A stretch of DNA of 64,000 nucleotides. Origin: Candidatus Poribacteria bacterium. GTDB taxonomy: Bacteria; Poribacteria; WGA-4E; GCA-2687025. The position numbers were made by a program, and so were the translations under genes. The number at the start of each line of letters is the position of its first letter. The first letter of the stretch is position 1. This document shows, piece after piece, positions 1,733-37,973 of this stretch. Where the stretch lies: NCBI GenBank assembly GCA_016866785.1, contig VGLH01000002.1, positions 14,086-78,085 of the forward strand, in the 5' to 3' direction. The notes under the pieces were generated by a model. That model did not search any database. It was not told the DNA's origin and saw only the letters and a program-made list of their open reading frames with translations.

Positions 1733-4287
1733 CCGGAGGCACTGGCGAGAATCCGTCGCGGCGCAAGCCTGGACGACGAGTCCGACGGCTACGGTGGACC
1801 CTCATCGGGCTCGCCGTAACCGCAGCGGTTGGGGGCGCTATCGGCATCGGCGCGTACTGGGCGTCGCGCCCGAAAGCGTATGAACCGGGCAGCGAGGACA
1901 AAGACATCACGTCCGTTCTCCGAAAGGACATCCCGGCGGACGCCCCCTCTCCCAAGCTCGTGGACGTCACGCGGGAAGCCGGCATCGCCGACTTCCAGAC
2001 GTTCGTTGGGGCGAGGACGTCTCAACTCCCGGAAGATATGGGTCCGGGGATGGCTTGGGGCGACTTCGACAACGACGGCGACGAGGACCTCTTCCTCGTT
2101 AGCGCAGGCGGTCCGCTGACTGCCCCGGAAACCCAACTCGCGCCGTCGTCGCTCTTTGAGAACCGGGGCGATGGCACGTTCCAGAGAGTCGTCGGCTTTG
2201 CGGAGCCGCGTATCCACGGCATGGGCGCCGCATGGGGCGACGTGGACGGCGACGGGTGGCTCGACCTACTCGTCACAGGCTACGACGCTCTCCAGCTTTA
2301 CCGGAACCGCCAAGGCAAGCTGTCGCTCGACAAAGGGTTCTCAGCCCCCAAGGGCTTCTGGGCAACGGCTTCGTTCGCCGACTACGACCAGGACGGCGAC
2401 CTCGACCTGTACGTGTGCGGCTACGTCCAGTACAAGCCCAGCGATGGCTCGCAGCGAACGTCCACGCAGTACAGCTCTTCGGTTCCCTACACGCTGAACC
2501 CGTCTTCATACGAGCCGGAACAGAATCTCCTCTTCCGCAATCGCGGCGACGGGCGGTTCGATGAGGTCGCCGAGAAAGCAGGCGTCTCGAACCCGGAGGG
2601 ACGCAGTCTGTCTGCCATCTGGCATGACTTCAACGCCGACGGATGGCTCGACCTCTACGTGGCGAACGACGTGTCCGACAACGTCCTTTGGCTGAACCGT
2701 CGAGGGAAGTTCGAGGACATCAGTCACGCAGCATGGGTCGCCGACTATCGCGGCGCGATGGGGCTCGCCGCAGCCGACTGGAACCGAGACGGCGACGACG
2801 ACCTCTTCATCACTCACTGGCTGGCGCAGGAGAACGCGCTGTACGACTCCCTGTCCAACGACATGAAGGGACAGCCCGGAGCCGGCAGCGATGGGTTGCG
2901 GTTCATGGATATTGCGGATGCGCAGGGCTTGGGACAGGTGGCGCTGCAGTCGGTCGGTTGGGGAGCCGAGTTCGTCGACCTCGACGCCGACGGTTGGCTC
3001 GACCTGGTCGTTGCGAACGGTAGCACCATCGAGACGGAGGAGACACCGAAGCGCCTTCGCCCTCAGCCCATGTTCGCGTTCTGGGGCAACCACGGAGAGC
3101 GATTCTACGACTTGGCTCCCCTCGACCCGATTCTCGCGACGCCGAGAGTTGCGCGCGGGCTGTCGATGTGCGACTACGACCGCGACGGGGACATGGATAT
3201 CCTCGTCTCGACGGCGGATGATGGCGTTCGGCTGTTCCGCAACGACATGCAATCCGGCAACTGGGCGGAGTTCCGGATCCGCACAAAGGACGGATCGGGC
3301 CCGGGACGCGATGGAACCGGCGCGACCGTCATCGTGACCGTTGGCGGCGTCCGCATCCGACGTTCGCTGTCCCCCGCGTCCTATCTCTCGCAGAGCTCGC
3401 GCGTCATTCACGTGGGATTGGGCGACGCGACTCGGATCGACCGACTGGAGCTCCTCTATCCCGGCGAGAAGCCCACGATCTACACCGACCTGGCGACGAA
3501 CACCGCGTGGGAGCTCACCGTTGGCGACACGACGGCGCGACAGGTCGGCAAGTCGGCGGCAGGCTCGTCCGCCAAATCGTCGTTGAGCCGCGAGCAGGTC
3601 GTCGAGTTCTGGCGGCTGCACCGCGCTGGCATGGACGCCATCAAGCGAGACAAGGACTTCGCAAGAGCCGTCGGGTCCTTCCGGCAGGCGTTGGAAATCG
3701 ACCCTAACCACGAAGACGCCCGGTACTACCTGGGCAACGCGCTGGCGGAGATCGGCGACATCGCCGGAGCCCTGAACCAGTTCGAGGCGTTGACGCGCGT
3801 CAATCCCAGCAGCCATCGAGGCTTCGCGCGTCACGGAACTCTTCTTGCCATCATGGCGAAGTCCCAGCGCGACCTCGATACGTCCCAATCGATCCTTGAG
3901 AAGGCGCTCGCACTCAACCCGGAGGAGACCGGCGCGCTGCTGACGCTTGGGGAAATCGCCCTGATGCGCGGCGACCTCGAGACAAGCCGACAGCGGCTCG
4001 AATGGGCTGCCCATAGCAATCCGCGAGCAACGGGGTCGTACTTCCTCCGAGCCTACATCGCGTGGAAAGCAAAGGACGCGGCTCGCTCGACGGAGCTGCT
4101 GCGCAAGGCGCGCGAGACGCTCGGGCCCGACTGGAAGCCCGAAGGAACTACCGCCGAAGGCGACGTGATCCACAAAGTGCACGACGACACGACCCCGCTC
4201 TCACCGTACTGGGACAGTTGGGATGGCAAGCCGAACCCGTCGACGGCGTTTGTGGCACTGGAGCGGGCGCTGCGCCTGCACTTCTGA
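1729..4287 (+). CDS. CRTAC1/ASPIC-UnbV family protein with FG-GAP-like Ca-binding repeats and C-terminal TPR repeats
   Basis: N-terminal membrane anchor. Repeated DxDxDGxxD loops (GDFDNDGDEDLF, GDVDGDGWLDLL, ADYDQDGDLDLY, DFNADGWLDLY, DWNRDGDDDLF, CDYDRDGDMDIL). UnbV/ASPIC-like segment (GTGATVIVTVGGVRIRR...LELLYPGEK). TPR-like helical repeats at the C-terminus. Confidence 0.8.
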   Translation: MTGGTGENPSRRKPGRRVRRLRWTLIGLAVTAAVGGAIGIGAYWASRPKAYEPGSEDKDITSVLRKDIPADAPSPKLVDVTREAGIADFQTFVGARTSQLPEDMGPGMAWGDFDNDGDEDLFLVSAGGPLTAPETQLAPSSLFENRGDGTFQRVVGFAEPRIHGMGAAWGDVDGDGWLDLLVTGYDALQLYRNRQGKLSLDKGFSAPKGFWATASFADYDQDGDLDLYVCGYVQYKPSDGSQRTSTQYSSSVPYTLNPSSYEPEQNLLFRNRGDGRFDEVAEKAGVSNPEGRSLSAIWHDFNADGWLDLYVANDVSDNVLWLNRRGKFEDISHAAWVADYRGAMGLAAADWNRDGDDDLFITHWLAQENALYDSLSNDMKGQPGAGSDGLRFMDIADAQGLGQVALQSVGWGAEFVDLDADGWLDLVVANGSTIETEETPKRLRPQPMFAFWGNHGERFYDLAPLDPILATPRVARGLSMCDYDRDGDMDILVSTADDGVRLFRNDMQSGNWAEFRIRTKDGSGPGRDGTGATVIVTVGGVRIRRSLSPASYLSQSSRVIHVGLGDATRIDRLELLYPGEKPTIYTDLATNTAWELTVGDTTARQVGKSAAGSSAKSSLSREQVVEFWRLHRAGMDAIKRDKDFARAVGSFRQALEIDPNHEDARYYLGNALAEIGDIAGALNQFEALTRVNPSSHRGFARHGTLLAIMAKSQRDLDTSQSILEKALALNPEETGALLTLGEIALMRGDLETSRQRLEWAAHSNPRATGSYFLRAYIAWKAKDAARSTELLRKARETLGPDWKPEGTTAEGDVIHKVHDDTTPLSPYWDSWDGKPNPSTAFVALERALRLHF

Positions 4288-4311
4288 CACACGCGCTCGA
4301 GGAAGGACACG

Positions 4312-6078
4312 ATGGATTCCCCTCGACTTCGTGGTTCCGACGGACCCCTCCGGTTCAGCGCCTACGTACCCGCCGAGAACGTGACGCGGCTCTTGTCAAG
4401 CGCCGAGGGACTGGACGAGGCGATCCGGCTGTGGCGCGCCAATGGCGTCACGAAGGTGTACCTCGACTGCCTTCGCGGCGGGCATTTCCCCGGCGAGCAA
4501 GTGCTCAGCACCGCGCGCGACACGATCCGACAAGCTGGGATCGGCGTCGCCGCAGGCATCACGCCGACTGCTGGCACGGGCAAGGCGTCGACGCACGGAC
4601 GCTGGTGGCTGTGCTACACGAATCGGTCCACTCAACGAGAGTTGGCGGACATCGTCACGCGGACAGCGCGTCTGTTCGATGAGCTCATCGTCGACGACTT
4701 CCTCTGCACTCAGTGCCAGTGTGACGAGTGCCGGGATGCGCGTGGCACGTCAACGTGGGTCGATTACTACGCATCGCTCATGCGTCATATCGCCGCTGAG
4801 TGCATCTTGGGTCCTGCGCGAGCCGTCAATCCGGATATCCACGTCGTCATCAAGTACCCGCAGTGGTACGACCGGTTCCACGCCTTCGGATACGATGTGA
4901 CGAGCCATCCGAGCCGCTTCGACGAGGTCTGGGTCGGAACCGAGATCCGCGATACACTGGTCGAGTATGTGCATCCGTACCAAGCCTTCGCCAACTACTC
5001 TTGGCTCGCGTCGCTGTCCGGGGAACGCATCGGCGGCGCGTGGTTCGACTTCATCAACTGCTACCCGGAGCGCTACGTCGAGCAGGCAGTGCAGAGCGTC
5101 CTCGCTGGAGCCCGCGAGTGCATCCGGTTCCACTACGATCCTGCGCTCTGGGACCCCGCCGTCGAGAACACAGCAGCGCTGTTGAGGGAGACCCTTCGCC
5201 TCGCCCGGCTCGCCGACGCACTGGGATCGCGCCGGGCGCAAGGCGTCACGTTCGTCAAGCCGACGGGCTCCGATGGCAGGGACGAGACCTACCTGCCGGA
5301 CTATCTCGGCATGCTGGGGTTGCCACTCGTGATGGCGCACGAGTTCCCGGTCGAGGCAGATGCCGTCTGCCTCGCCGTCCACGCAGCCGGCGACGCGGAT
5401 CTCTCCGAGCGGGCTCTCGCGTTCGCTCGCAGCGGCGGAACGCTCCTGCTGACGCCGGGCTACGTCGAAGCGATGGCGCACGACACGCATGTCCTCGAAG
5501 CGGCGGGACTTGCGAGCCCGCCCGTCGCTCGGAGCGACTCGTGGACGTTCCGGTTCGCCGTCGGCGGCGCACGAGCCGATGGCGAGGCGCACGTCCGGTT
5601 CAGCGCGCGTCCGGTTCCGGCAGGAGCGAACACGCTCGCATCGGCGATCTGCGCCAACGGTTCCTTCCCGGTGCTCACATCGCGTGCATATGGGCAGGGC
5701 ACGGTGCACGTGCTGAACACGACGACCTTCCAGTACGCCGAGGGATCGGGACGCGTGACGACGGGCGAGCCCGTGTCGCTCCCCCATCTGCCGCAGGCAG
5801 TCGTCGACGCGATCCGGACTGCGGCTCTCCCCAAAGCGCCGGTCAGCGTGTCGGTTCGCTCTCAGGTTGGCGTCTACCGATTCGGCGACCTGTTCGTGCT
5901 GTGCAACTTCAACGATCAGGCTGTGTCGGCGGTTCTGTCCAGCGCGACAGCAACGGATGGACCCATCGTCGATCCGACCAGCGGCGAGCGAGTCGCGAGC
6001 TGGCAGGACGGCGAGACGACAGTGCGCATACCGAGACGCGACTACGTCGTACTTCGGGTTGGTGAAGGAGCCATGTGA
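4312..6078 (+). CDS. hypothetical protein (588 aa), first gene of a translationally coupled five-gene cluster
   Basis: Long ORF with uniform GC-rich coding composition and no motif I can name. Its stop overlaps the next start (ATGTGATG at 6072-6080). Confidence 0.55.
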   Translation: MDSPRLRGSDGPLRFSAYVPAENVTRLLSSAEGLDEAIRLWRANGVTKVYLDCLRGGHFPGEQVLSTARDTIRQAGIGVAAGITPTAGTGKASTHGRWWLCYTNRSTQRELADIVTRTARLFDELIVDDFLCTQCQCDECRDARGTSTWVDYYASLMRHIAAECILGPARAVNPDIHVVIKYPQWYDRFHAFGYDVTSHPSRFDEVWVGTEIRDTLVEYVHPYQAFANYSWLASLSGERIGGAWFDFINCYPERYVEQAVQSVLAGARECIRFHYDPALWDPAVENTAALLRETLRLARLADALGSRRAQGVTFVKPTGSDGRDETYLPDYLGMLGLPLVMAHEFPVEADAVCLAVHAAGDADLSERALAFARSGGTLLLTPGYVEAMAHDTHVLEAAGLASPPVARSDSWTFRFAVGGARADGEAHVRFSARPVPAGANTLASAICANGSFPVLTSRAYGQGTVHVLNTTTFQYAEGSGRVTTGEPVSLPHLPQAVVDAIRTAALPKAPVSVSVRSQVGVYRFGDLFVLCNFNDQAVSAVLSSATATDGPIVDPTSGERVASWQDGETTVRIPRRDYVVLRVGEGAM

Positions 6079-7076
6079 TGCTGCGGATCGCCATCACGGG
6101 CGCGGGCTCGATGGGAAGGGCTCACGCGCGATCCATCGGAACCTACGGGGCCCGCGTCGGCGCCGTCCATGATGTCAACGCCGAAGCAGCCAGCGCGCTT
6201 GCCAACGAGTGCGGCGCGGAAGCGGCTACGACCCATCTCGATGAGCTCTTCACGGGGGAGCCCGACGGGTTGGTGGTCGCGACGCCGCCGGCGTCACGTA
6301 TCGAGCCGATCCGGCTGGCTTGCGAGCATGGCGTCGCATTGATGATCGAGAAGCCACCGGCGCTCACGATGCGCGATGGGCTCGCCTGCCAGCGCCTGGT
6401 CCGCGACGCAGGCGTGCTGGCGGCTGTCGGGCTGCAGCTTCGTTACCATCCGCTCTACGAACGGCTGCGCGAAATGCTCGCCGGTCAGACCATCCACCTG
6501 GCGCGGACGGTGTGCACCGTCGACTACTACCTCAGCTTCCGCATGAACCCATGGTTCCTGCAGATCGAGCACAGCGGCGGGCCCCTGCCGGAGCAGGCGG
6601 GGCACATACTCGACGCCCTGCGTTACGTCCTTGGCGACCCGAAGCCGATACGCGCCCACGCCTTCGCCGTCAAGAACATGGCGCACGACCGTGCCGAGTT
6701 CGACTCGGAGAACGCCATCCAGGTCTCCTACGAGCTCGACAACGGCGTCTTCGGGACGCACATGAACCACTGCGGGACCGAGCGATTCGCCTTCGACCTG
6801 GAGGTCACGGGTCCGCATCTGCGGCTCCAAGCCAACATCACCGAGGGTCGGATCAAGGGCTACCTGCACGGCAAGGACGTTGACGAACCAGCTCCGGCGC
6901 AGAGCTCGCTCGGGCTGGACAAGACGGCGGCGTGGCTGCGTGCCATCGAGACGGGCGATACGTCGCTTGTGCGCTCCCCGTTCGACGATGCGTTGCAGAC
7001 GCTCGCGCTCATCGACGCAGCCGTGCGCTCCCGCAACTCGGGGGTGTTCGCCGATGTGAAGGGCTCCGATGGCTAG
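6075..7076 (+). CDS. Gfo/Idh/MocA family NAD(P)-dependent oxidoreductase
   Basis: N-terminal Rossmann motif IAITGAGSMGRAHA. Typical ~330 aa length. EKP motif (LMIEKPPA). Confidence 0.85.
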   Translation: MMLRIAITGAGSMGRAHARSIGTYGARVGAVHDVNAEAASALANECGAEAATTHLDELFTGEPDGLVVATPPASRIEPIRLACEHGVALMIEKPPALTMRDGLACQRLVRDAGVLAAVGLQLRYHPLYERLREMLAGQTIHLARTVCTVDYYLSFRMNPWFLQIEHSGGPLPEQAGHILDALRYVLGDPKPIRAHAFAVKNMAHDRAEFDSENAIQVSYELDNGVFGTHMNHCGTERFAFDLEVTGPHLRLQANITEGRIKGYLHGKDVDEPAPAQSSLGLDKTAAWLRAIETGDTSLVRSPFDDALQTLALIDAAVRSRNSGVFADVKGSDG

Positions 7077-21466: not shown

Positions 21467-22813
21467 TCACTTCGCCTTCGCGGCAGCCGCGTACTTGTCG
21501 CGCGCGAACGCCCGCCACTTCGATACGGTGTCCTTGCGGGTCAGCGCGTAGTCGTCGCTGTTCCACCGTTCGGACAGCGCGTTCGCCTCGGATTCGGTGA
21601 TGGGCATCGCGGCGAAGGCAGCGCGCGCCGATTCGGACGCCCCGGAGACGCTCTTCCAGGCGGCGGTGAGCTCCTTCGCCGAGTCGATGAGGAGCGAGCC
21701 GTAGAGATCGTTAACGAGGCTCCAGCGCCGTCCGCCCAGTTCGGCGTCGTAGTGTACCGTGTTCTGGATCTCGAACGGGTTCGCGGCGATCAGGCGCTTG
21801 TCGCCGAGCTCGTCGTAGAGCCCCGGTAGCACGCTGGACCGCGCGACGACTTCACTCTTGGGTCCTCCGGGCTCGCCGACAGGCAGCATCAGGAGCTTTT
21901 GGGCATCAGGAGTCAGGCAGTATTCGACGAACCGCTTGGCGAGCTCCATGTTCGGAGCGCCCTTGAGGATCGCGATGGCGTCCGGGTTGATGACCGAAAG
22001 CCCCTCCGGAGTGACGTAGGCGATCTTGTCTGCCCCGGTCTTCACCATCTGGGCGTAGGCGTAGAAGTCGATGACAGGTCCGTAGATGACGTTGCCGAGG
22101 GCGACCTCGTTGGGTACGTCGCTCGCCCCCGCGGTAAAGGACTTCACGTTCGCCGCCATCTCGGTCAGGACGCGCCAACCCTTCTCCCACCCGTACGCCT
22201 GCAGGATGATCTCGTAGATCATGTGCCCGCTGCCGCTATTGCGCGGGTCCGGTGCGGCGATCTTGCCCATCAGCGCCGGATTCGCCAGGTCTTCCCATGT
22301 CGCAGCGGTGGGCAGGTTGAGCTGCGTTTGGAGGAGACGGTTGTACATGATCCCGAACCCCGCGAGCGCCACTCCGTACCAGCGGTACTGCTCATCGTAG
22401 ACCGGCACGCCGGCGATCTGCCTACCGACGGCGCTCAGGATGGTACCGGGAACCGGGTACGGTTCCAGCAGATTCTGCTCGACGAGTTGCAGGTAGGAGT
22501 CGGTGCCTCCGCCGAAGAACAGGTCCATGTTGATGCCGGACGGCGAGCGCTTGTACTCTGATACGATGAAGCGCATGATCTGGGACGTGCCGCCCTGGTC
22601 GAGCCATTCGACGCCGGCATCCATGCCGTGGTTCGCCTTCATCCACGCCTGGAAGCCTGCCGTGAACTCATCGCGGAGGGCAGGCGGATGGGGCGACAGG
22701 ATGCGAACCTTCTGAACGTCCTTCTGCGCTTCCTTCTTGCCGCAGCCCGAGGATCCGAGCAGAACGACTGCCGCCGTGACTGCGAGCCAAATAGCCTGAC
22801 GCATACGCACCAT
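21467..22813 (-). CDS. ABC transporter substrate-binding lipoprotein (family 1 solute-binding protein)
   Basis: Signal peptide plus lipobox LLGSSGC. ~450 aa periplasmic-binding-protein-like sequence. Lies directly upstream of the fused permease. Confidence 0.8.
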   Translation of the reverse strand: MVRMRQAIWLAVTAAVVLLGSSGCGKKEAQKDVQKVRILSPHPPALRDEFTAGFQAWMKANHGMDAGVEWLDQGGTSQIMRFIVSEYKRSPSGINMDLFFGGGTDSYLQLVEQNLLEPYPVPGTILSAVGRQIAGVPVYDEQYRWYGVALAGFGIMYNRLLQTQLNLPTAATWEDLANPALMGKIAAPDPRNSGSGHMIYEIILQAYGWEKGWRVLTEMAANVKSFTAGASDVPNEVALGNVIYGPVIDFYAYAQMVKTGADKIAYVTPEGLSVINPDAIAILKGAPNMELAKRFVEYCLTPDAQKLLMLPVGEPGGPKSEVVARSSVLPGLYDELGDKRLIAANPFEIQNTVHYDAELGGRRWSLVNDLYGSLLIDSAKELTAAWKSVSGASESARAAFAAMPITESEANALSERWNSDDYALTRKDTVSKWRAFARDKYAAAAKAK

Positions 22814-31665: not shown

Positions 31666-31691
31666 CTCGAAGGCGTGCTGAGGAAGGCTCG

Positions 31692-33185
31692 ATGCGGATC
31701 GGTGTCGCGCAGTTCTATCACGAATCCAACTCGTTCTCGTCGACCTCGACGCGAGAGGTGGATTTTCGCGACACCTCCGCATCGGGACCTGCCCTTCTCG
31801 ACAGATGGCGCGATACGAACAGCGAAATCGCCGGAGTCATCGACGCAGCCGAGGAGTCGGGATCAACGTCTCAGCCCGTCGAGCTGGTTCCCCTGACGGG
31901 AGCGTGGGCATGGCCCTCCGGTCCCATCGTGGACGAGTTCTACGTCCGCTTTCGCAACGATCTGGCGCAGCGCGTTGCGAGCGCCGGTCTGGACGGGCTC
32001 CTGCTTTCGTTGCACGGAGCCGCCATCACGACGGCGCGCGCGGACGCCCAAGCAGATCTGTTGGCGGCGATCCGGGGGCGTGTCGGAGCGGCGCTCCCCA
32101 TCGTCTCGACGCTCGACTTCCACGCCAACCTGTCGCCGGAGGTCGTCTCGGCGCTCGATGCGCTCGTCGGGTATCGAACCTATCCGCATGTCGATTACCG
32201 CGAACGCGGGGCCCAGGCGCTGCGACTGACTGCGGAACTGGTCGAGACCGGGCTGAGACCCCAGACCGGCTTCACGCAGCCGCCGATGATGCCGGTCCCG
32301 CAGCGGCAAGGCACGTCGGGCAACCCGATGGCGGCAATCATGGCGCGCGCCCGCGAGATCGAGTCGGCGCCGGACGTGCTCGTCGCGAACGTGTTCGGCG
32401 GGTTTGCCTACGGCGACTCGCCAAGTGCAGGCTTGTCTGTCGCGGTCGTCTCTCGTGAGAGCCACGAAATCGCTCAGAACTACGCCGACGAACTCGCGAT
32501 GATGGCTTGGACGTCACGCGCCGAGTTCGTTCCTGACCTCCTCAGCCCGCGCGACGCCGTGCGGACCGCCTACAGCCACGACAGCGGCTTGTCCGTCCTC
32601 GTGGATGTCGGGGACAACGTGGGGGGCGGTACGCCGGCAGACGGCACGGTGCTTCTCTCGGAACTGCTGAGAGTCCGAGCGGAACGTGCCGCCGTCGTCC
32701 TATGCGACGGCAAGTCGGTGCGCGAGTGCGTGCAGGCGGGCGTTGGCGCGGAAGTCCGCCTGCGAGTCGGCGGCAAGACCGACGGCTGGCACGGCGCGCC
32801 GGTCGCTGTGACGGGACGTGTCCGCATGCTCTTCGACGGCGAGTTCACGAACGTCGGGCCCATGCGCGAGGGAATCACGGAGCGTCAGGGATTGACGACT
32901 CGCGTGACGGTCGGTGGCATCGATCTCCTGCTGACGACGCGTCGATTGCCGCCGTGGAACCTTGAGCAGCTTCGCGCCGTCGGTATTGAGCCGACGCGTC
33001 TGCGTGCGTTCGTCGCGAAGTCCGCCGTGGCGTTCCGAGCCGCATGGGAACCGATTGCGGACCGGGTCATCGAGGTGAACACACCGGGGTTGACGTCTGC
33101 CGATCTCTCCGCGTTCCCGTACAAACACGTTCGCCGACCCGTCTTCCCCCTGGACGAAGCGTGCGCGCCCGGGAGGGATCGGTAG
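31692..33185 (+). CDS. MlrC-like M81 family metallopeptidase
   Basis: Start at ATG with GAGGAAGG upstream. N-terminus MRIGVAQFYHESNSF matches the MlrC/DUF1485 family. Confidence 0.8.
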   Translation: MRIGVAQFYHESNSFSSTSTREVDFRDTSASGPALLDRWRDTNSEIAGVIDAAEESGSTSQPVELVPLTGAWAWPSGPIVDEFYVRFRNDLAQRVASAGLDGLLLSLHGAAITTARADAQADLLAAIRGRVGAALPIVSTLDFHANLSPEVVSALDALVGYRTYPHVDYRERGAQALRLTAELVETGLRPQTGFTQPPMMPVPQRQGTSGNPMAAIMARAREIESAPDVLVANVFGGFAYGDSPSAGLSVAVVSRESHEIAQNYADELAMMAWTSRAEFVPDLLSPRDAVRTAYSHDSGLSVLVDVGDNVGGGTPADGTVLLSELLRVRAERAAVVLCDGKSVRECVQAGVGAEVRLRVGGKTDGWHGAPVAVTGRVRMLFDGEFTNVGPMREGITERQGLTTRVTVGGIDLLLTTRRLPPWNLEQLRAVGIEPTRLRAFVAKSAVAFRAAWEPIADRVIEVNTPGLTSADLSAFPYKHVRRPVFPLDEACAPGRDR

Positions 33186-33763
33186 TGGGCAAGGTTCAGT
33201 CCGAGCCTTTGGTCAAGCCGATCTGCGGGGCTCTCTTCATCGACCCGATGGTCCTTGAGCAGGCGTGGGTTGCGCTCGAAGAGATGCTGGGTCCGCGACA
33301 AGATACCTCGGAGCCGGTGGCTTTCACGTACTCGACGTACTACGATGCCGAGATGGGCCCGGGAATCCGCCGCTGCTACGCTTCGTTCGCCAGCCCTGTG
33401 GACGCGGGATTCCTCGCGTCTGCCAAGCACGCGACGAACCGCATCGAGCGAACGCTGGCGCAGCCCGACGGCCGCCGACGCGTCAACCTCGACATCGGCT
33501 ATCTCGGCGCTGGGCAGGTCGTTCTCGCCACGACGAAGGGCGTCAGCCATCGTGTTGCCATCGGCAGAGGAATCTACGGCGAGCTCACCTACACGTTCGC
33601 GGAGGGCGAGTACCGACCGCTTCCGTGGACGTACCCCGACTACCGCGACGAAGGCACGCGGTCGTTCTTCCTTCAGGTGCGATCCGACTACATGAGGCAG
33701 CATCAGGCGTGGAGCAGCTCTCCCGGAGCTCGCCACTTCACGCGACGGAGAGAGAGTGCATGA
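33185..33763 (+). CDS. hypothetical protein (DUF, ~190 aa), translationally coupled
   Basis: GTG overlapping the upstream stop (TAGTG). Conserved-looking core (PICGALFIDP...NLDIGYLGAGQVVLATTKG). Start uncertain. Confidence 0.45.
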   Translation: MGKVQSEPLVKPICGALFIDPMVLEQAWVALEEMLGPRQDTSEPVAFTYSTYYDAEMGPGIRRCYASFASPVDAGFLASAKHATNRIERTLAQPDGRRRVNLDIGYLGAGQVVLATTKGVSHRVAIGRGIYGELTYTFAEGEYRPLPWTYPDYRDEGTRSFFLQVRSDYMRQHQAWSSSPGARHFTRRRESA

Positions 33764-35730
33764 ATCGCCACGGTGCAACGCGAATCCTTCTGCTCTGTGC
33801 GTTGGCAGCCTGGGGCTCCCAGGCATTCGGATGGGGGTATGAGGCGCACAAGCTGATAACGCGGAAGGCGTGCGACGCAATGCCGGAGCCGGTCCGCGGC
33901 TTCTTCATCTCGCATTCCGACGAGCTCGCCGAGCGCTCCCTCGATCCCGATTCCTGGCGCAAGACGGACAAACTGGAGCACTCCAACCACTTCCTGGATA
34001 TCGACTACAGCGGCTTCGGTCCGTACCCGTTCTCGGACCTTCCCAGGTCGTACGCCGAGGCGTCCGCGAAGTTCGGCGAGGAGGCACTCGACCAGTACGG
34101 GCGGCTTCCCTGGCGCATCGACCGCTACATGGAGGATGCCGTCCGCGCGATCAAGTCGGGGGACCCGGCGAAGGTCGTCGGCGTTCTCGGAGCTTACAGC
34201 CACTACATCGAAGACGCGCACATGCCGCTTCACGTCGTGATGAACTTCAACGGTCAGTTGACCGGGCAGCGAGGCGTCCACGGACGGTGGGAGTGGAACA
34301 TGGTTGACCGGCATCTGCCGGAGCTCAGCGCGGCAGTGCTCGCGGATCCGTCGAAGGTCGCACCGGTAGAACAGCCGTTGGAGACGGCGTTCGAGATCAT
34401 CTTCGACTCGTACGGCAAGCACTTCGCTCTGCTGGACGCCGACCGCCACGCGGCGGCTGGCATCGAGGGCGACCTGGAGGAGAGCGACGTCTACTTCGAC
34501 CGGCTGTGGCGCCGTTCCAACGAGCTTTGCATCGCGCAAATGACAAGAGCCGCTGAGTACGTGGCGAGTTTTTGGACGACCGCATGGGAGCGCGCAGGCA
34601 AGCCGAAACTCCCTGCGGACGTTCCAGCACGGCGCGAACGGGCCCGCGACCTGGGAATCCGCATCGGGTCTCGAACGCCGGGTCCTCTGAACGCGATCAC
34701 CGACGTCCTGGGCGTACGGGTCGGTCACGTCACTCATGTCCGAGGTAGCGGCAAGAACGCGGTCCGCACCGGCGTTACGGCGATCGTGCCTCGCGATGAC
34801 ATCTGGCACCGGAAAGCTCCCGCTGCTGTGTTCGCCATGAACAGCAACGGCGAAGTGATGGGTTCCCACTGGATCCGGGAAGCCGGCAGCCTCGAAGTGC
34901 CCATCGTGCTCACCACGACCCTGAACGTCCCGGCGGCGGCGGCTGGTGTAGTCGAATGGATGGTTCGTGTGCACCCGTCGATGGGCAGAGGCGACGACGT
35001 CGTGCTGCCCGTCGTCGCGGAGTGCGACGATTCTGGGCTCAACGACTCCCAGGCTCGCGCGGTCACAGCCGAGGACACCGTTCGCGCGATTGAGACATCT
35101 CGGTCGGGCCCCGCCGAGGAGGGGTCGGTCGGGGCTGGTACCGGGCTCAGGAGCTACGGGTTCAAGGGCGGCATCGGCACGGCGTCGCGCGTCATTGAGG
35201 GCGGATACACGGTGGGTGCCCTGGTCGAGGCGAACGGCGGACGTAGGTCAGAGCTTCGAGTCGATGGCGTCCCCGTCGGCGAGGAGATCGCCGACCTGCT
35301 GCCGACTCGACCGGATCCCGAGAAGTCGTTCATCGTCGTCGTGGCGACGGACGCGCCCCTCGATGCCCGTCAACTGGAGCGCGTCGCCAAGCGGGCGTCA
35401 TGGGGCATCGCCCGAACCGGAACCGTCGGTAGACACGGCAGCGGCGACTTCGTGATCGCCTTTTCCACCGCGAACCCGATGCCCCACATGCCCGACGAAC
35501 CGACGTATCCCGGTGTCTCCTTCGTCGACGCGCACATCAACGAGCTCTTCGCAGCAACCATCGAGGCGACGGAGGAAGCGATCGTCAACGCGCTCGTCGC
35601 GGCGGAGACGATGGTCGGCTACGGCGGCGCGACAGCGCACGAACTGCCGAGTGATCGGCTGCGCGCGATCCTGTACCGCCATGGCAGGCTCTTCCCGTCC
35701 TCGACCCAGCCAGTGGAGGCGGCGGAATGA
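33760..35730 (+). CDS. secreted fusion protein: N-terminal S1/P1 nuclease-like domain + C-terminal DmpA/S58 (P1 family) peptidase domain
   Basis: ATGA overlap with the upstream gene; GGAGAGAG RBS. Signal peptide, then WGYEAHKLI and HYIEDAHMPLH (S1/P1 nuclease zinc ligand motifs). Then ITDVLGVRVGHVTH...TGVTAIVP, typical of DmpA/L-aminopeptidase. Confidence 0.75.
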   Translation: MNRHGATRILLLCALAAWGSQAFGWGYEAHKLITRKACDAMPEPVRGFFISHSDELAERSLDPDSWRKTDKLEHSNHFLDIDYSGFGPYPFSDLPRSYAEASAKFGEEALDQYGRLPWRIDRYMEDAVRAIKSGDPAKVVGVLGAYSHYIEDAHMPLHVVMNFNGQLTGQRGVHGRWEWNMVDRHLPELSAAVLADPSKVAPVEQPLETAFEIIFDSYGKHFALLDADRHAAAGIEGDLEESDVYFDRLWRRSNELCIAQMTRAAEYVASFWTTAWERAGKPKLPADVPARRERARDLGIRIGSRTPGPLNAITDVLGVRVGHVTHVRGSGKNAVRTGVTAIVPRDDIWHRKAPAAVFAMNSNGEVMGSHWIREAGSLEVPIVLTTTLNVPAAAAGVVEWMVRVHPSMGRGDDVVLPVVAECDDSGLNDSQARAVTAEDTVRAIETSRSGPAEEGSVGAGTGLRSYGFKGGIGTASRVIEGGYTVGALVEANGGRRSELRVDGVPVGEEIADLLPTRPDPEKSFIVVVATDAPLDARQLERVAKRASWGIARTGTVGRHGSGDFVIAFSTANPMPHMPDEPTYPGVSFVDAHINELFAATIEATEEAIVNALVAAETMVGYGGATAHELPSDRLRAILYRHGRLFPSSTQPVEAAE

Positions 35731-36767
35731 GATTCAGAACGCTCGGCGCATTCGCACTAGTCGCGTTGGCGCTCGCCTCGGGCTGTCGGCGCGGAGACCA
35801 GACCTCGACGGAACTGCATGTGTTCGCCTGGTCCGACTACTTCACCGACGAGGCGATCCAGCGGTTCGAGAAGGAGCACAAGGCTCACGTCGTCCTCGAC
35901 ACGTACGAGAACAACGAGGACCTCGTCGCCAAGCTCCAGGCGGGCGTGAGCGGGTACGATGTGGTGGTGCCGTCGGACTACGCCGTGAAGCAACTCGCCG
36001 AGCTCGGGCTCCTGGAGCCGCTGAACCGGGGCAACGTCCCGAACCTGCGAACCCTCGATACGAACTTCCTGAACCAGTACTTCGATCCCAGCAACCGGTA
36101 CTCGGTTCCCTACCTCTGGGGCACCGCCGGGATCGGTTACGACTCGACCAAGGTCACGCCCCCGCCGGTGAGCTCCGCCGTCCTATGGGATAAGCAATAC
36201 GGCGGCAACATCAACATGCTCGACGACGTGCGCGAGTCCTTCGCCCTCGCCCTCAAGCGGCTGGGCTACTCCGTCAACACGCGTGAACCGAATGAGATCA
36301 CGGCGGCTCAGGAGCTCCTCATCCAACAGAAGCCGCTGGTGCGCAGCTACACAACCGAAACGGACGTGCTGATGCTCTCCGGTCAGGTAGTGCTGACGCA
36401 CGCGTGGAGCGGCGATGTGCTGCGCGTCGCCGAGGAAGCCCCTCACTGGAAGTACGTGATCCCCGAAGAGGGGAGCACGATCTTCATCGACAACCTGTGC
36501 ATCCCCAAAGGCGCGCCGAAGAAGGAGCTCGCCGAGGCGTTCATCAACTTCATCATCCAGCCGGACGTGATCGCCGGCGTCACCGCCTTCACGCACTACG
36601 CGAACTGCGTTCCGGCGTCGAAGGAGCATTTGCCGCCTACGCTGCGCGACAACCCAGTGATGTCGCCGCCCGAAGATATCATTCGACGGCTGGAACCGCT
36701 GCAGGACCTCGGTGAACTACAGACGCTCTACGGAGACGCCTGGACCGCCGTCAAGGCAGCCCAGTGA
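35727..36767 (+). CDS. spermidine/putrescine-type ABC transporter substrate-binding lipoprotein (PotD/PotF-like), orphan
   Basis: Lipobox LALASGC. PotD-family N-terminal signature (HVFAWSDYF...VVPSDY). No cognate permease or ATPase in the operon. Confidence 0.8.
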   Translation: MRFRTLGAFALVALALASGCRRGDQTSTELHVFAWSDYFTDEAIQRFEKEHKAHVVLDTYENNEDLVAKLQAGVSGYDVVVPSDYAVKQLAELGLLEPLNRGNVPNLRTLDTNFLNQYFDPSNRYSVPYLWGTAGIGYDSTKVTPPPVSSAVLWDKQYGGNINMLDDVRESFALALKRLGYSVNTREPNEITAAQELLIQQKPLVRSYTTETDVLMLSGQVVLTHAWSGDVLRVAEEAPHWKYVIPEEGSTIFIDNLCIPKGAPKKELAEAFINFIIQPDVIAGVTAFTHYANCVPASKEHLPPTLRDNPVMSPPEDIIRRLEPLQDLGELQTLYGDAWTAVKAAQ

Positions 36768-37192
36768 AGAATCCGCGATTGGTTTGGCTCCGCGTCCTCG
36801 TTCTCGCCGTCCTTGCCCTTGGGGCGGCGGTCGTCGTCGCGCCGCCGTTGCTCGAGTCGCGGCACGTCGCCCAGGCGATCAGCGATCTGGAACTCCTGTC
36901 CGACGCCGCCAGGCAGTACCTGCACCACACCGGCAAGACCTGCGAAGAACTCCAGGCACTCATCGACGATCCAGGCGTCGCCGGTTGGCGCGGGCCCTAC
37001 TTGGCAAGTGACGCCGTACCGCCGACGCCCTGGGGCGGCTCCTATCGGATCGATGTCGCTCGCGGGGTCGTTGGGATCGCCGCAGACGCCGCGCGCGCGC
37101 CTGAGAAGTTCCGTCTGGGAGGCATCGCCGAGCTGTCCCAGGCGGTGCGAGCGGATCCGCATTGGTGGGCGGACGACAATGGTCCACGCTGA
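36764..37192 (+). CDS. GspG-like pseudopilin-domain protein lacking canonical prepilin cleavage motif
   Basis: C-terminal region matches GspG (AISDLELLSDAARQYLHHTGK...WRGPYL...PTPWGGSY). The N-terminus is a plain hydrophobic anchor without G-F-T-L-I-E. Confidence 0.6.
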   Translation: MKNPRLVWLRVLVLAVLALGAAVVVAPPLLESRHVAQAISDLELLSDAARQYLHHTGKTCEELQALIDDPGVAGWRGPYLASDAVPPTPWGGSYRIDVARGVVGIAADAARAPEKFRLGGIAELSQAVRADPHWWADDNGPR

Positions 37193-37973
37193 GGCGGCGA
37201 TCGCTGCCGGAGTCGTCGGGATGTGCGTCGGCAGCTTCGGGAACGTCGTCGCCCACCGGATCCCCATCGGGCAAACGCCCTGGTTCCCGCAACGCTCCTA
37301 CTGCCCGCATTGCCAGTCGTCGATCCGCTTCCGCGACAACATCCCACTGCTGAGCTTCTTTCTGCTGCGGGGCAAGTGCCGGGACTGCCATGGGCCCATC
37401 TCGTGGCGCTACCCGGTGGTCGAGGCTGTGACTGCGCTCGGGTTCTCGCTGGCGTTCTTGCTGCACGGACTGTCCATGCGGGCCCTGAGCGGGTCCCTTT
37501 TTGCCGCCGTTCTTGTCGTCCTCGCAACGACGGACTCGGAGCACGGCAGACTCCCCACCGCCGTCGTGGCTTCAGGAGCCGTCCTTGCCGCGTTCGTTGC
37601 GCTCGCGCGCGCGCTGAGCGAGGGCGCTGGCAGCCTTTGGCATGTCGCATCGGCGGCGCTCACCGGGTTGGGACTGCTGGGATTGGTGCGCTGGGTCGCC
37701 TCGAGATTGGCGCGCCGGGAGGCAATGGGGTTGGGCGATGTCAGACTGGCGGGGATGATGGGACTCTACATCGCCTCGCCGTCGCACACGCTGCTGGCAA
37801 TCGTCCTGGCGTCCTTGGCAGGGGCATTGTGGGGAACCGTTCTGATCGCCATGGGACGCGCGCGGATGGGAAACCAGATGCCCTTCGGACCATTCCTCGC
37901 CGTAGGCGGGATCGTGTCGTTTCACGCCGGGGAACCGATCCTGGGCTGGTACCTCCGGCTTTTCGCCCGGTGA
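37179..37973 (+). CDS. prepilin peptidase (A24 family, PilD/GspO-like)
   Basis: N-terminal zinc-finger cysteines (CPHCQSSI...CRDCHGPI). Multiple TM helices. Conserved LGDVRLAGMMGLY aspartate region. Confidence 0.8.
   Translation: MVHAEAAIAAGVVGMCVGSFGNVVAHRIPIGQTPWFPQRSYCPHCQSSIRFRDNIPLLSFFLLRGKCRDCHGPISWRYPVVEAVTALGFSLAFLLHGLSMRALSGSLFAAVLVVLATTDSEHGRLPTAVVASGAVLAAFVALARALSEGAGSLWHVASAALTGLGLLGLVRWVASRLARREAMGLGDVRLAGMMGLYIASPSHTLLAIVLASLAGALWGTVLIAMGRARMGNQMPFGPFLAVGGIVSFHAGEPILGWYLRLFAR

Follow-up and report, generated by a model that had tools for sequence, protein, structure and literature searches.

A predicted secreted fusion of a PLC/P1-superfamily zinc domain with a DmpA/S58 peptidase in Candidatus Poribacteria

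The fused gene and its two halves

In a genome of Candidatus Poribacteria, a single open reading frame (ORF) joins a zinc domain of the phospholipase C (PLC)/P1 nuclease superfamily to a predicted self-processing peptidase of the DmpA/S58 family. The stretch of DNA analysed here (the window) comprises 64,000 nucleotides of contig VGLH01000002.1 from assembly GCA_016866785.1 (positions 14,086 to 78,085, forward strand), and all coordinates below count from its first letter. Translation of positions 33760-35730 (+) gives 656 codons and a stop, with no internal stop, in agreement with an earlier reading of these letters made without database searches (the sequence-only reading), which had described a single uninterrupted ORF of 656 amino acids (aa). 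The gene is made up as follows:

33760..35730, +, fusion gene, 656 aa and stop: signal peptide, PLC/P1-superfamily zinc domain, short linker, DmpA/S58 peptidase
33760..33831, +, predicted Sec signal peptide, aa 1-24 (MNRHGATRILLLCALAAWGSQAFG), judged by eye and from hydrophobicity
33832..34605, +, all-helical zinc phosphoesterase-like domain (N-domain), aa 25-282, from sequence, profile and fold comparison
34606..34638, +, short linker KLPADVPARRE, aa 283-293, from the alignment of fusions, the starts of alignments to Protein Data Bank (PDB) sequences (aa 286-294) and a dip in the predicted local distance difference test (pLDDT)
34639..35727, +, DmpA/S58 (MEROPS P1) self-processing aminopeptidase/amidase domain, aa 294-656, from PF03576 and PDB sequence matches
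35323..35328, +, predicted autoproteolytic site Lys522/Ser523, from alignment to 1b65 and 2drh; putative cleavage

The frame stays open upstream as far as a GTG at 33265, overlapping the DUF4416 gene in another frame. The start was placed at ATG 33760; in the alignment, all homologues begin at the equivalent Met and continue with a signal peptide. GGAGAGAGAG lies just before this ATG, which overlaps the DUF4416 stop (ATGA); the stop of the fusion gene overlaps the ATG of the downstream gene likewise (ATGA). The four motifs singled out by the sequence-only reading were all located in the translation at the expected places: AFGWGYEAHKLI at aa 22-33, HYIEDAHMPLH at aa 148-158, ITDVLGVRVGHVTH at aa 313-326 and TGVTAIVPRDD at aa 337-347. 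In databases, the protein is already present as 'hypothetical protein' at NCBI and as 'D-aminopeptidase' at JGI. An antisense open frame of 423 codons (33703-34974, -) lies opposite the gene; the homology evidence is all on the + strand, and such antisense ORFs are common in sequence of 65% G+C like this one.

The signal peptide, read by eye and from Kyte-Doolittle hydrophobicity, consists of a basic n-region (MNRHGATR), a hydrophobic core (ILLLCALAAW, 9-residue mean up to 3.1) and an A-F-G/W cleavage motif, and its presence on the single ORF supports the earlier description of one secreted polypeptide. Cleavage before Trp25 is predicted to leave Trp as the mature N-terminus. The linker joins the last N-domain helix, which ends in AGKP, to the S58 homology, which begins with RARDLGI. 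In the full-length model (per-residue pLDDT 91.5, predicted template modelling score (pTM) 0.70), pLDDT dips at residues 281-290.

By every sequence test, the C-terminal half is unambiguously a member of the DmpA/S58 family, as the sequence-only reading had proposed. PF03576 (Peptidase_S58) matches aa 311-625 with E=2.5e-109 and 365.9 bits (cut-off 23.9) and spans positions 1-306 of the 307-position profile. PDB sequence matches extend over aa 286/294-644, led by 2drh (9.9e-84) and DmpA itself (1b65, 6.3e-78), followed by BapA (3n2w, 8.8e-67) and 5tzb (2.6e-65); DmpA and 2drh are far closer than ThnT, a distant match at E 1.4e-11. The catalytic residues are all present. Ser523 aligns with DmpA Ser250 (1b65) and with its Ser counterparts in 2drh and 3n2w; counted along the 1b65 alignment, DmpA Gly249/Ser250 corresponds to Lys522/Ser523, Ser288-Gly289 to S561-G562 and Asn218 to N492, and E421 corresponds to the DmpA AE(T/C) motif. 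The DmpA residue numbers (Ser250, Ser288-Gly289, Asn218) come partly from the literature and partly from the alignment count. S523, S561-G562, N492 and E421 are invariant in the alignment of fusions (15/15). The predicted products are an alpha chain of aa 25-522 (54.4 kDa), which carries the zinc domain, and a beta chain of aa 523-656 (14.3 kDa). No NCBIfam model was found for either half of the fusion. Elsewhere in the family, a 772-aa protein (P0136) carries two tandem S58 domains in one chain, seen as two matched stretches (789.8 bits).

The N-terminal half was less easily placed. Its predicted metal ligands are W25, H30, D62/D64, H77, H148, D152, H158, H174 and E178, with R67 a probable phosphate-binding residue. 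In a 62-sequence family alignment, the nine ligand positions are invariant or at least 90% conserved; they are complete in the window protein and in 34/44 family sequences tabulated, and W25-G26 and H30 are invariant across all full-length N-domain sequences compared. The residues of an S1/P1-type trinuclear zinc site, including the expected mature N-terminal Trp, are thus present, with E178 instead of Asp as the ninth ligand. The WGxxxH start (mature W1...H6) and D64-x-x-R67 are nuclease-like, and H174-x3-E178 is PLC-like. PLC itself binds zinc through W1, H14, D55, H69, H118, D122, H128, H142 and E146. H77-F78-L79-D80 fits an H-F-x-D pattern that occurs in PLC too and does not tell the two families apart. 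In S1 nuclease, Asp65, Lys68 and the N-terminal Trp ligand have been described, and the nucleoside-binding site NBS1 consists of a Phe and an Asp beside a zinc-binding His, in the H-F-x-D pattern (PMC5201275).

Hidden Markov models (HMMs) gave a mixed result for the two domains of the sequence-only reading: PF03576 is strong, PF02265 falls below its cut-off and PF00882 is borderline. PF02265 (S1-P1_nuclease) reaches 15.1 bits on the whole protein and 17.3 bits on the domain alone (cut-off 29.5), and matches only 7/62 family members at E<=0.01; PF00882 (Zn_dep_PLPC) reaches 24.7 and 27.1 bits, respectively (cut-off 26.8), and matches 22/62. The two models belong to one Pfam clan. A PDB search with the single N-domain sequence returned no matches, and a family profile was needed. 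The 62-member profile matched one PDB sequence, Bacillus cereus phosphatidylcholine PLC (PC-PLC; E about 3e-5), pairing H148, D152, H158, H174 and E178 exactly with their PC-PLC counterparts; no nuclease was among the PDB sequences matched, even at E<=10. Fold comparison scored PC-PLC 1ah7 at 18.2, PlcB 8cqm at 17.6, SmNuc1 8qjl at 17.5, S1 5fb9 at 17.3, AtBFN2 3w52 at 16.9 and alpha-toxin 1olp at 16.4, with the next match at 4.8. The predicted domain thus has the S1/P1 nuclease fold and, as modelled, is equidistant from PLC and the S1/P1 nucleases. The S1/P1 nuclease-like character proposed by the sequence-only reading therefore holds for the mature Trp/His start and the HxxxDxxxxxH zinc motif; the assignment to the nuclease family itself failed on the HMM, which that reading had named as its own test. 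Because the PF02265 cut-off was not reached, classing the N-domain among the S1/P1 nucleases is not justified. By fold it is a genuine PLC/P1 nuclease superfamily member, not demonstrably in either characterised family.

Fused and split forms in Poribacteria

An identical 656-aa protein occurs in three assemblies: as MBM3213408.1 (FJZ36_00605 of an NCBI metagenome-assembled genome (MAG) of Candidatus Poribacteria bacterium) and, with the same neighbours, in a pair of independent Logan assemblies. Another fourteen 90%-identity clusters (48-68% identity, 598-668 aa, at least 91% coverage) align end to end with the window protein, and the short linker is conserved. In a survey of one genome per GTDB species by tblastn followed by an open-frame check, the one-frame fusion was found in eight species genomes (L009, L010, L011, L013, L015-L018), six labelled Candidatus Poribacteria and two 'uncultured bacterium'. 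The sequence-only reading had asked whether the fusion was assembly-derived and whether it recurs; the three identical proteins and the 14 clusters exclude the former, and the clusters together with the eight genomes establish the latter. That reading had also not recognised the architecture as described; indeed, literature searches found no paper on the fusion architecture, the N-domain family or links between Poribacteria and peptidases or phospholipases.

Homology searches with the N-domain only had returned stand-alone proteins of ~295 aa, and the contexts of the two best matches contained no S58 gene. A unique or artefactual fusion was suggested by that result and overturned by the full-length search, which found fusions including the identical protein. 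The N-domain-only search missed even the 100%-identical P0121 and all other fusions, presumably through word-based candidate selection; such a search could mislead on how rare a fusion is.

In 19 other Poribacteria species genomes (L026, L027, L029-L031, L033, L034, L036-L038, L041-L047, L049, L064), a DUF4416 gene is followed by a PLC/P1-like gene and then an S58 gene as separate ORFs. In the three split loci that were translated (L027, L049, L031), each product has a signal peptide of its own. The zinc-domain gene encodes ~400-450 aa, with a signal peptide ending ...FP/WG and a C-terminus ...AGKPELK/R. The open frame of the S58 gene starts 14-17 nt past the zinc-gene stop in L027 and L049; in L031 the S58 gene lies ~2.1 kb beyond that stop, with two ORFs between, and in L026 at a similar distance. 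The signal peptide of the split S58 product is MRLWFSLFLCLIAGWMPVNSDQ..., and its mature start, ...VPEGRARARDLGI (...SSVPEGRARARDLGI), matches the linker ...VPDGRSRARDLGI of related fused proteins. Read from these sequences, the difference between split and fused forms is exactly a stop codon, a spacer and a second signal peptide. That related species keep both halves as neighbouring genes is Rosetta-stone evidence that the two products probably cooperate.

The split zinc genes contain an insertion of 110-150 aa after DPDRWR, between the equivalents of D64 and H77 (L027 4929-6131, L049 4878-6137, L031 4908-6269). It has no significant Pfam match, with one weak sub-threshold match to HeH (E 0.005). 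The L031 insert contains an internal tandem duplication, in which the segment IDFPQDAPVSLRGKNGRWFITIGEQEY is present twice.

In a neighbour-joining (NJ) tree of N-domains, the Poribacteria sequences form a single clade that divides in two. The window protein falls in clade I, together with P0122-P0126 and a zinc-degenerate group; in clade II, a fused group is sister to the split group. The zinc-degenerate subclade carries D64Y, H148F, D152K and H174D and includes both fused members (P0127-P0130, L010, L011, L013) and stand-alone ones (P0001, P0002, L012). Its fused members keep every S58 catalytic residue. The window protein lies outside this branch, and its ligand set is full. The stand-alone zinc-degenerate gene at L001 (P0001, 8001-8891) lies ~2.6 kb upstream of Mu-like phage genes, with three unannotated genes between it and the portal, Mu-like protease and capsid genes.

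The wider zinc-domain family and the gene neighbourhood

The size of the zinc-domain family was estimated by a filter-only HMMER scan of 1.84 billion representatives, counted as 50%-identity clusters: 2107 clusters at E<=1e-3, 1057 at E<=1e-10 and 192 at E<=1e-30. The N-domain thus belongs to a large, uncharacterised third branch of the PLC/P1 superfamily. Most members are stand-alone proteins of ~280-300 aa, the few checked being 'hypothetical protein' or unnamed; by record title, hosts include Acidobacteriota, Bacteroidota, KSB1, Ignavibacteriota and others. Among the best 150 family representatives, the zinc domain begins within ~60 residues of the N-terminus in nearly all, and 16/17 listed proteins of at least 500 aa have it at the extreme N-terminus, as expected if the Trp alpha-amino group has to be free. 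The only non-N-terminal case in this set, P0395 (816 aa), places an S1/P1 nuclease domain (38.6 bits, above the cut-off) at the C-terminus, behind a subtilase S8 domain, and raises the question of how the N-terminal Trp ligand arises there.

A recurrent partner of the zinc domain is an NPP-type (nucleotide pyrophosphatase/phosphodiesterase) phosphodiesterase domain, PF01663 (P0256, P0258, P0284, P0307, L032). A class of ~530-920 aa starts with the zinc domain (P0256, P0258, P0262, P0267, P0273, P0284, P0286, P0300, P0307); PF01663 was found in all 4 of the 4 members scanned, in P0256 only weakly, and the unscanned members of ~900 aa are assumed to carry it too. Other partners are a type IX secretion system (T9SS) sorting tail, a dockerin and a weak, sub-threshold VWA match. 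The partners point to a secreted, phosphoester-scavenging role for the family, and because the same family is repeatedly fused to NPP-type phosphodiesterases, the N-domain may be read as a phosphoesterase. In a Vicinamibacteria MAG (L032), positions 2504-5284 encode a zinc domain and an NPP of ~630 aa (PF01663 E 4.6e-34) in a 926-codon open frame, giving a protein of 919 aa. Directly downstream (5371-6348) lies an S58 gene, the sole S58 association seen outside Poribacteria. Of the other loci with this zinc-domain-NPP combination, one is on a contig too short to judge and one has no S58 neighbour.

In the window, the fusion gene belongs to a run of six genes with start-to-stop overlaps, encoding M81/MlrC-like, DUF4416, fusion, PotD-like lipoprotein, GspG-like pseudopilin and prepilin peptidase products in that order. 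The neighbours are as follows:

31689..33185, +, M81/MlrC-like metallopeptidase, first gene of the run (PF07364 2.2e-84, PF07171 1.5e-50)
33185..33763, +, DUF4416 gene, 192 aa, without signal peptide (PF14385 E=1.1e-48)
35727..36767, +, PotD/PotF-like polyamine-binding lipoprotein, lipobox LASGC (PotD/PotF structure matches)
36764-37192, GspG-like pseudopilin, overlapping the PotD-like gene start-to-stop
37179-37973, prepilin peptidase A24, overlapping the pseudopilin gene start-to-stop

The M81/MlrC-like gene was not seen beside the module in the other loci compared, and its link appears specific to this genome. DUF4416 lies upstream of the module in most Poribacteria loci: in the window, in L005/L009, L008 and L015-L018, and in all split loci; no PDB relative of DUF4416 was found, nor any paper in the literature search. 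The PotD-like gene follows the fusion in 4 of the 5 distinct clade I genomes (window, L005/L009, L006/L013, L010). Its product matches the PotD and PotF structures at E 1e-61 to 1e-48 and, by a manual mapping onto the alignment, keeps most of the positions that contact the polyamine in E. coli PotD. Neither an ABC permease nor an ATPase gene adjoins it (window 35727-37973), and the binding protein appears to be an orphan. At 21905-22018 (-), a stretch of 38 aa is weakly similar to PotD (47% identity, E 1.5e-5), a second such match that may come from the gene of another solute-binding protein.

Proposed function, alternatives and comparison with known systems

The architecture of the fusion, its conservation, its inventory of catalytic residues, its fold and the split/fused relationship are established by the comparisons above. 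We propose that the gene encodes a Sec-exported two-enzyme single chain, born in Poribacteria by the joining of neighbouring, co-oriented genes, in which both domains cooperate. On the sequence evidence, we give this proposal a probability of roughly 0.6.

Export, the two maturation steps, activity and functional coupling are what we infer from sequence for this protein. It would be exported through Sec to the periplasm or beyond, and signal peptidase would cut after AFG, exposing Trp25. The free alpha-amino group and carbonyl of Trp25 would then complete a three-zinc centre with H30, D62/64, H77, H148, D152, H158, H174 and E178. The DmpA-type domain would cut itself at Lys522/Ser523, making Ser523 the N-terminal nucleophile of a 14-kDa beta chain that would remain bound to the 54-kDa alpha chain carrying the zinc domain. 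DmpA is a tetramer, and if the fusion protein assembles in the same way, four zinc domains would lie on the outside. Because the zinc domain needs the extreme N-terminus and the DmpA domain makes its own internal N-terminus, the domain order is fixed: it is the only one compatible with both maturation steps.

The zinc module most likely hydrolyses a phosphoester, a phosphodiester or phosphomonoester with a nucleotide or a lipid head-group as alternatives; the suggestion of the sequence-only reading that it may bind or cleave something other than nucleic acid is neither favoured nor disfavoured by these comparisons. The DmpA module most likely acts on peptides, amides or esters, taking off an N-terminal residue whose amino group is free; in characterised relatives, the residue removed is D-Ala, beta-Ala, Gly or a small L-residue. 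Both modules would act in the same extracytoplasmic scavenging process, with the peptidase as the indispensable partner. Many Poribacteria are sponge symbionts, and in this phylum the fusion protein may serve nutrient scavenging in the host matrix.

Several observations weigh against this proposal. In the NJ tree of the S58 halves, the two Poribacteria clades do not group to the exclusion of stand-alone S58 proteins, some named Nitrospirota or Nitrospira; there may have been two (or more) fusions or a domain replacement, and NJ trees are too crude to decide. The zinc-degenerate subclade, given its substitutions, can hardly bind three zincs, so N-domain catalysis would not always be needed. In the putative self-cleavage site, Lys precedes the nucleophile, where DmpA has Gly and BapA has Asn, and self-cleavage of the fusion is thus unproven. 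A fixed interface between the domains finds no support in the full-length model, with its pTM of 0.70 only. Moreover, family members from other phyla, Vicinamibacteria L032 excepted, showed no S58 gene in the flanks covered (up to 5 kb); the link between zinc domain and S58 peptidase is lineage-specific.

The first alternative is that the N-domain is mainly a non-catalytic accessory (for binding, targeting, scaffolding or folding) and that only the DmpA half does chemistry. We consider this unlikely, although the zinc-degenerate branch speaks for it: a fused subclade has lost four predicted zinc ligands with all S58 catalytic residues invariant, and the degenerate form persists as a stand-alone protein (P0001, P0002, L012), so that a zinc-less version is evidently useful. 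As far as its sequences go, this branch shows the peptidase to be the constant catalytic element and the N-domain to have some value beyond catalysis. However, the nine ligands are kept in the window protein, in both the fused and the split proteins of clade II and in most family members outside the phylum, despite 30-50% overall identity, a retention that argues for selection on the metal site, and the family is often fused to another phosphoesterase, NPP. Loss of the zinc site with retention of the domain offers a natural experiment on the transition from enzyme to pseudoenzyme.

Just as unlikely, in our judgement, is that the N-domain is a true S1/P1-type single-strand nuclease or 3'-nucleotidase, with extracellular nucleic acid and peptides digested independently by the two halves. 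The fold and the WGxxxH start fit such an enzyme, but the S1-P1 HMM stays at 15-17 bits against 29.5, the family profile matches only PLC among PDB sequences at E<=10 and the last ligand is a PLC-like Glu. The HF.D motif does not discriminate, being shared with PLC.

A third alternative, which we hold to be doubtful and rather less probable than the foregoing, has both domains acting in sequence on one hybrid substrate in which a phosphoester is combined with an aminoacyl or beta-alanyl group; D-alanylated teichoic acid, alanyl- or lysyl-phosphatidylglycerol and coenzyme A/phosphopantetheine are candidates. In its favour, Poribacteria keep the two halves fused or closely adjacent across a deep divergence, and in Vicinamibacteria L032 an S58 gene directly follows the zinc-domain-NPP gene. 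ThnT, a distant S58 relative (E 1.4e-11), is a pantetheine-cleaving enzyme. DmpA relatives cleave D-Ala esters, D-Ala amides and beta-alanyl compounds. Beta-alanyl/carnosine hydrolysis is cited in PMC9235088. The zinc-degenerate subclade, however, argues against an obligatory two-step reaction, no S58 gene adjoins another zinc-domain-NPP locus, and DmpA and 2drh are much closer to the S58 half than ThnT is. On the same doubtful footing, fusion and split pair could mark a dedicated extracytoplasmic pathway for such a substrate. The pathway might then act on D-alanylated teichoic acids of neighbouring bacteria, aminoacyl-phosphatidylglycerols or coenzyme A/phosphopantetheine; the N-domain would be a third, functionally new branch of PLC/P1 zinc phosphoesterases, and in clade I the released amine might be caught by the co-translated PotD-like binding protein.

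There is a negligible chance that the long ORF arose artificially, by chimeric assembly or by a sequencing error deleting the stop between two genes: the halves are indeed two genes in related genomes, but the ORF is identical in three independent assemblies, 14 other clusters and eight reference genomes share the continuous frame and conserved short linker, and the split S58 signal peptide is missing internally in the fusions, which a stop-codon error alone would not explain, so that repeated assemblies, homologous fusions and internal signal-peptide loss together all but rule it out.

Returning to the proposed two-enzyme chain, the fused and split arrangements provide a guilt-by-association handle on two poorly understood groups: a secreted branch of the PLC/P1 nuclease superfamily, with more than 1000 50%-identity clusters (E<=1e-10) annotated 'hypothetical', and the DmpA-type peptidases, whose natural substrates are still unclear. 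Among known systems, B. cereus PC-PLC (1AH7), Listeria PlcB (8CQM) and the PF00882 family share only 13-17% identity with the N-domain, and its Pfam score is borderline. Its spacing is W1...H6, in contrast to W1...H14 in PLC, and no choline-site residues of PC-PLC or PlcB were recognised in it. From the S1/P1 nucleases (S1 5FB9, SmNuc1 8QJL, AtBFN2 3W52; PF02265), the N-domain differs in failing the family HMM and in having Glu rather than Asp as its last ligand.

The C-terminal half resembles DmpA (1b65) and 2drh in its homology over aa 286/294-644 (E 6e-78 to 1e-83), and DmpA in its Ser nucleophile at the self-cleavage site, its S-G pair and its Asn. Unlike DmpA, the fusion protein carries a 258-residue zinc domain at the N-terminus of the alpha chain and, given its signal peptide, would be exported; its predicted cleavage site is Lys/Ser, not the Gly/Ser or Asn/Ser of DmpA and BapA. 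The fusions of N-domain and NPP (P0258, P0284, L032 and others) are alike in that the same zinc domain leads a secreted multi-enzyme protein, whereas their partner is a type I phosphodiesterase/nucleotide pyrophosphatase and their hosts are Acidobacteriota and other phyla. Finally, the split pair (L027 4929-6131 and 6145-7320; L049, isolate PCPOR2b) has an N-domain orthologous on the NJ tree and shares the order behind DUF4416, all zinc ligands and all peptidase residues, but differs in its two ORFs, their own signal peptides and the insertion in the zinc gene. The fusion is therefore a new combination of known superfamilies, with comparative evidence for functional coupling, and not a new kind of system.

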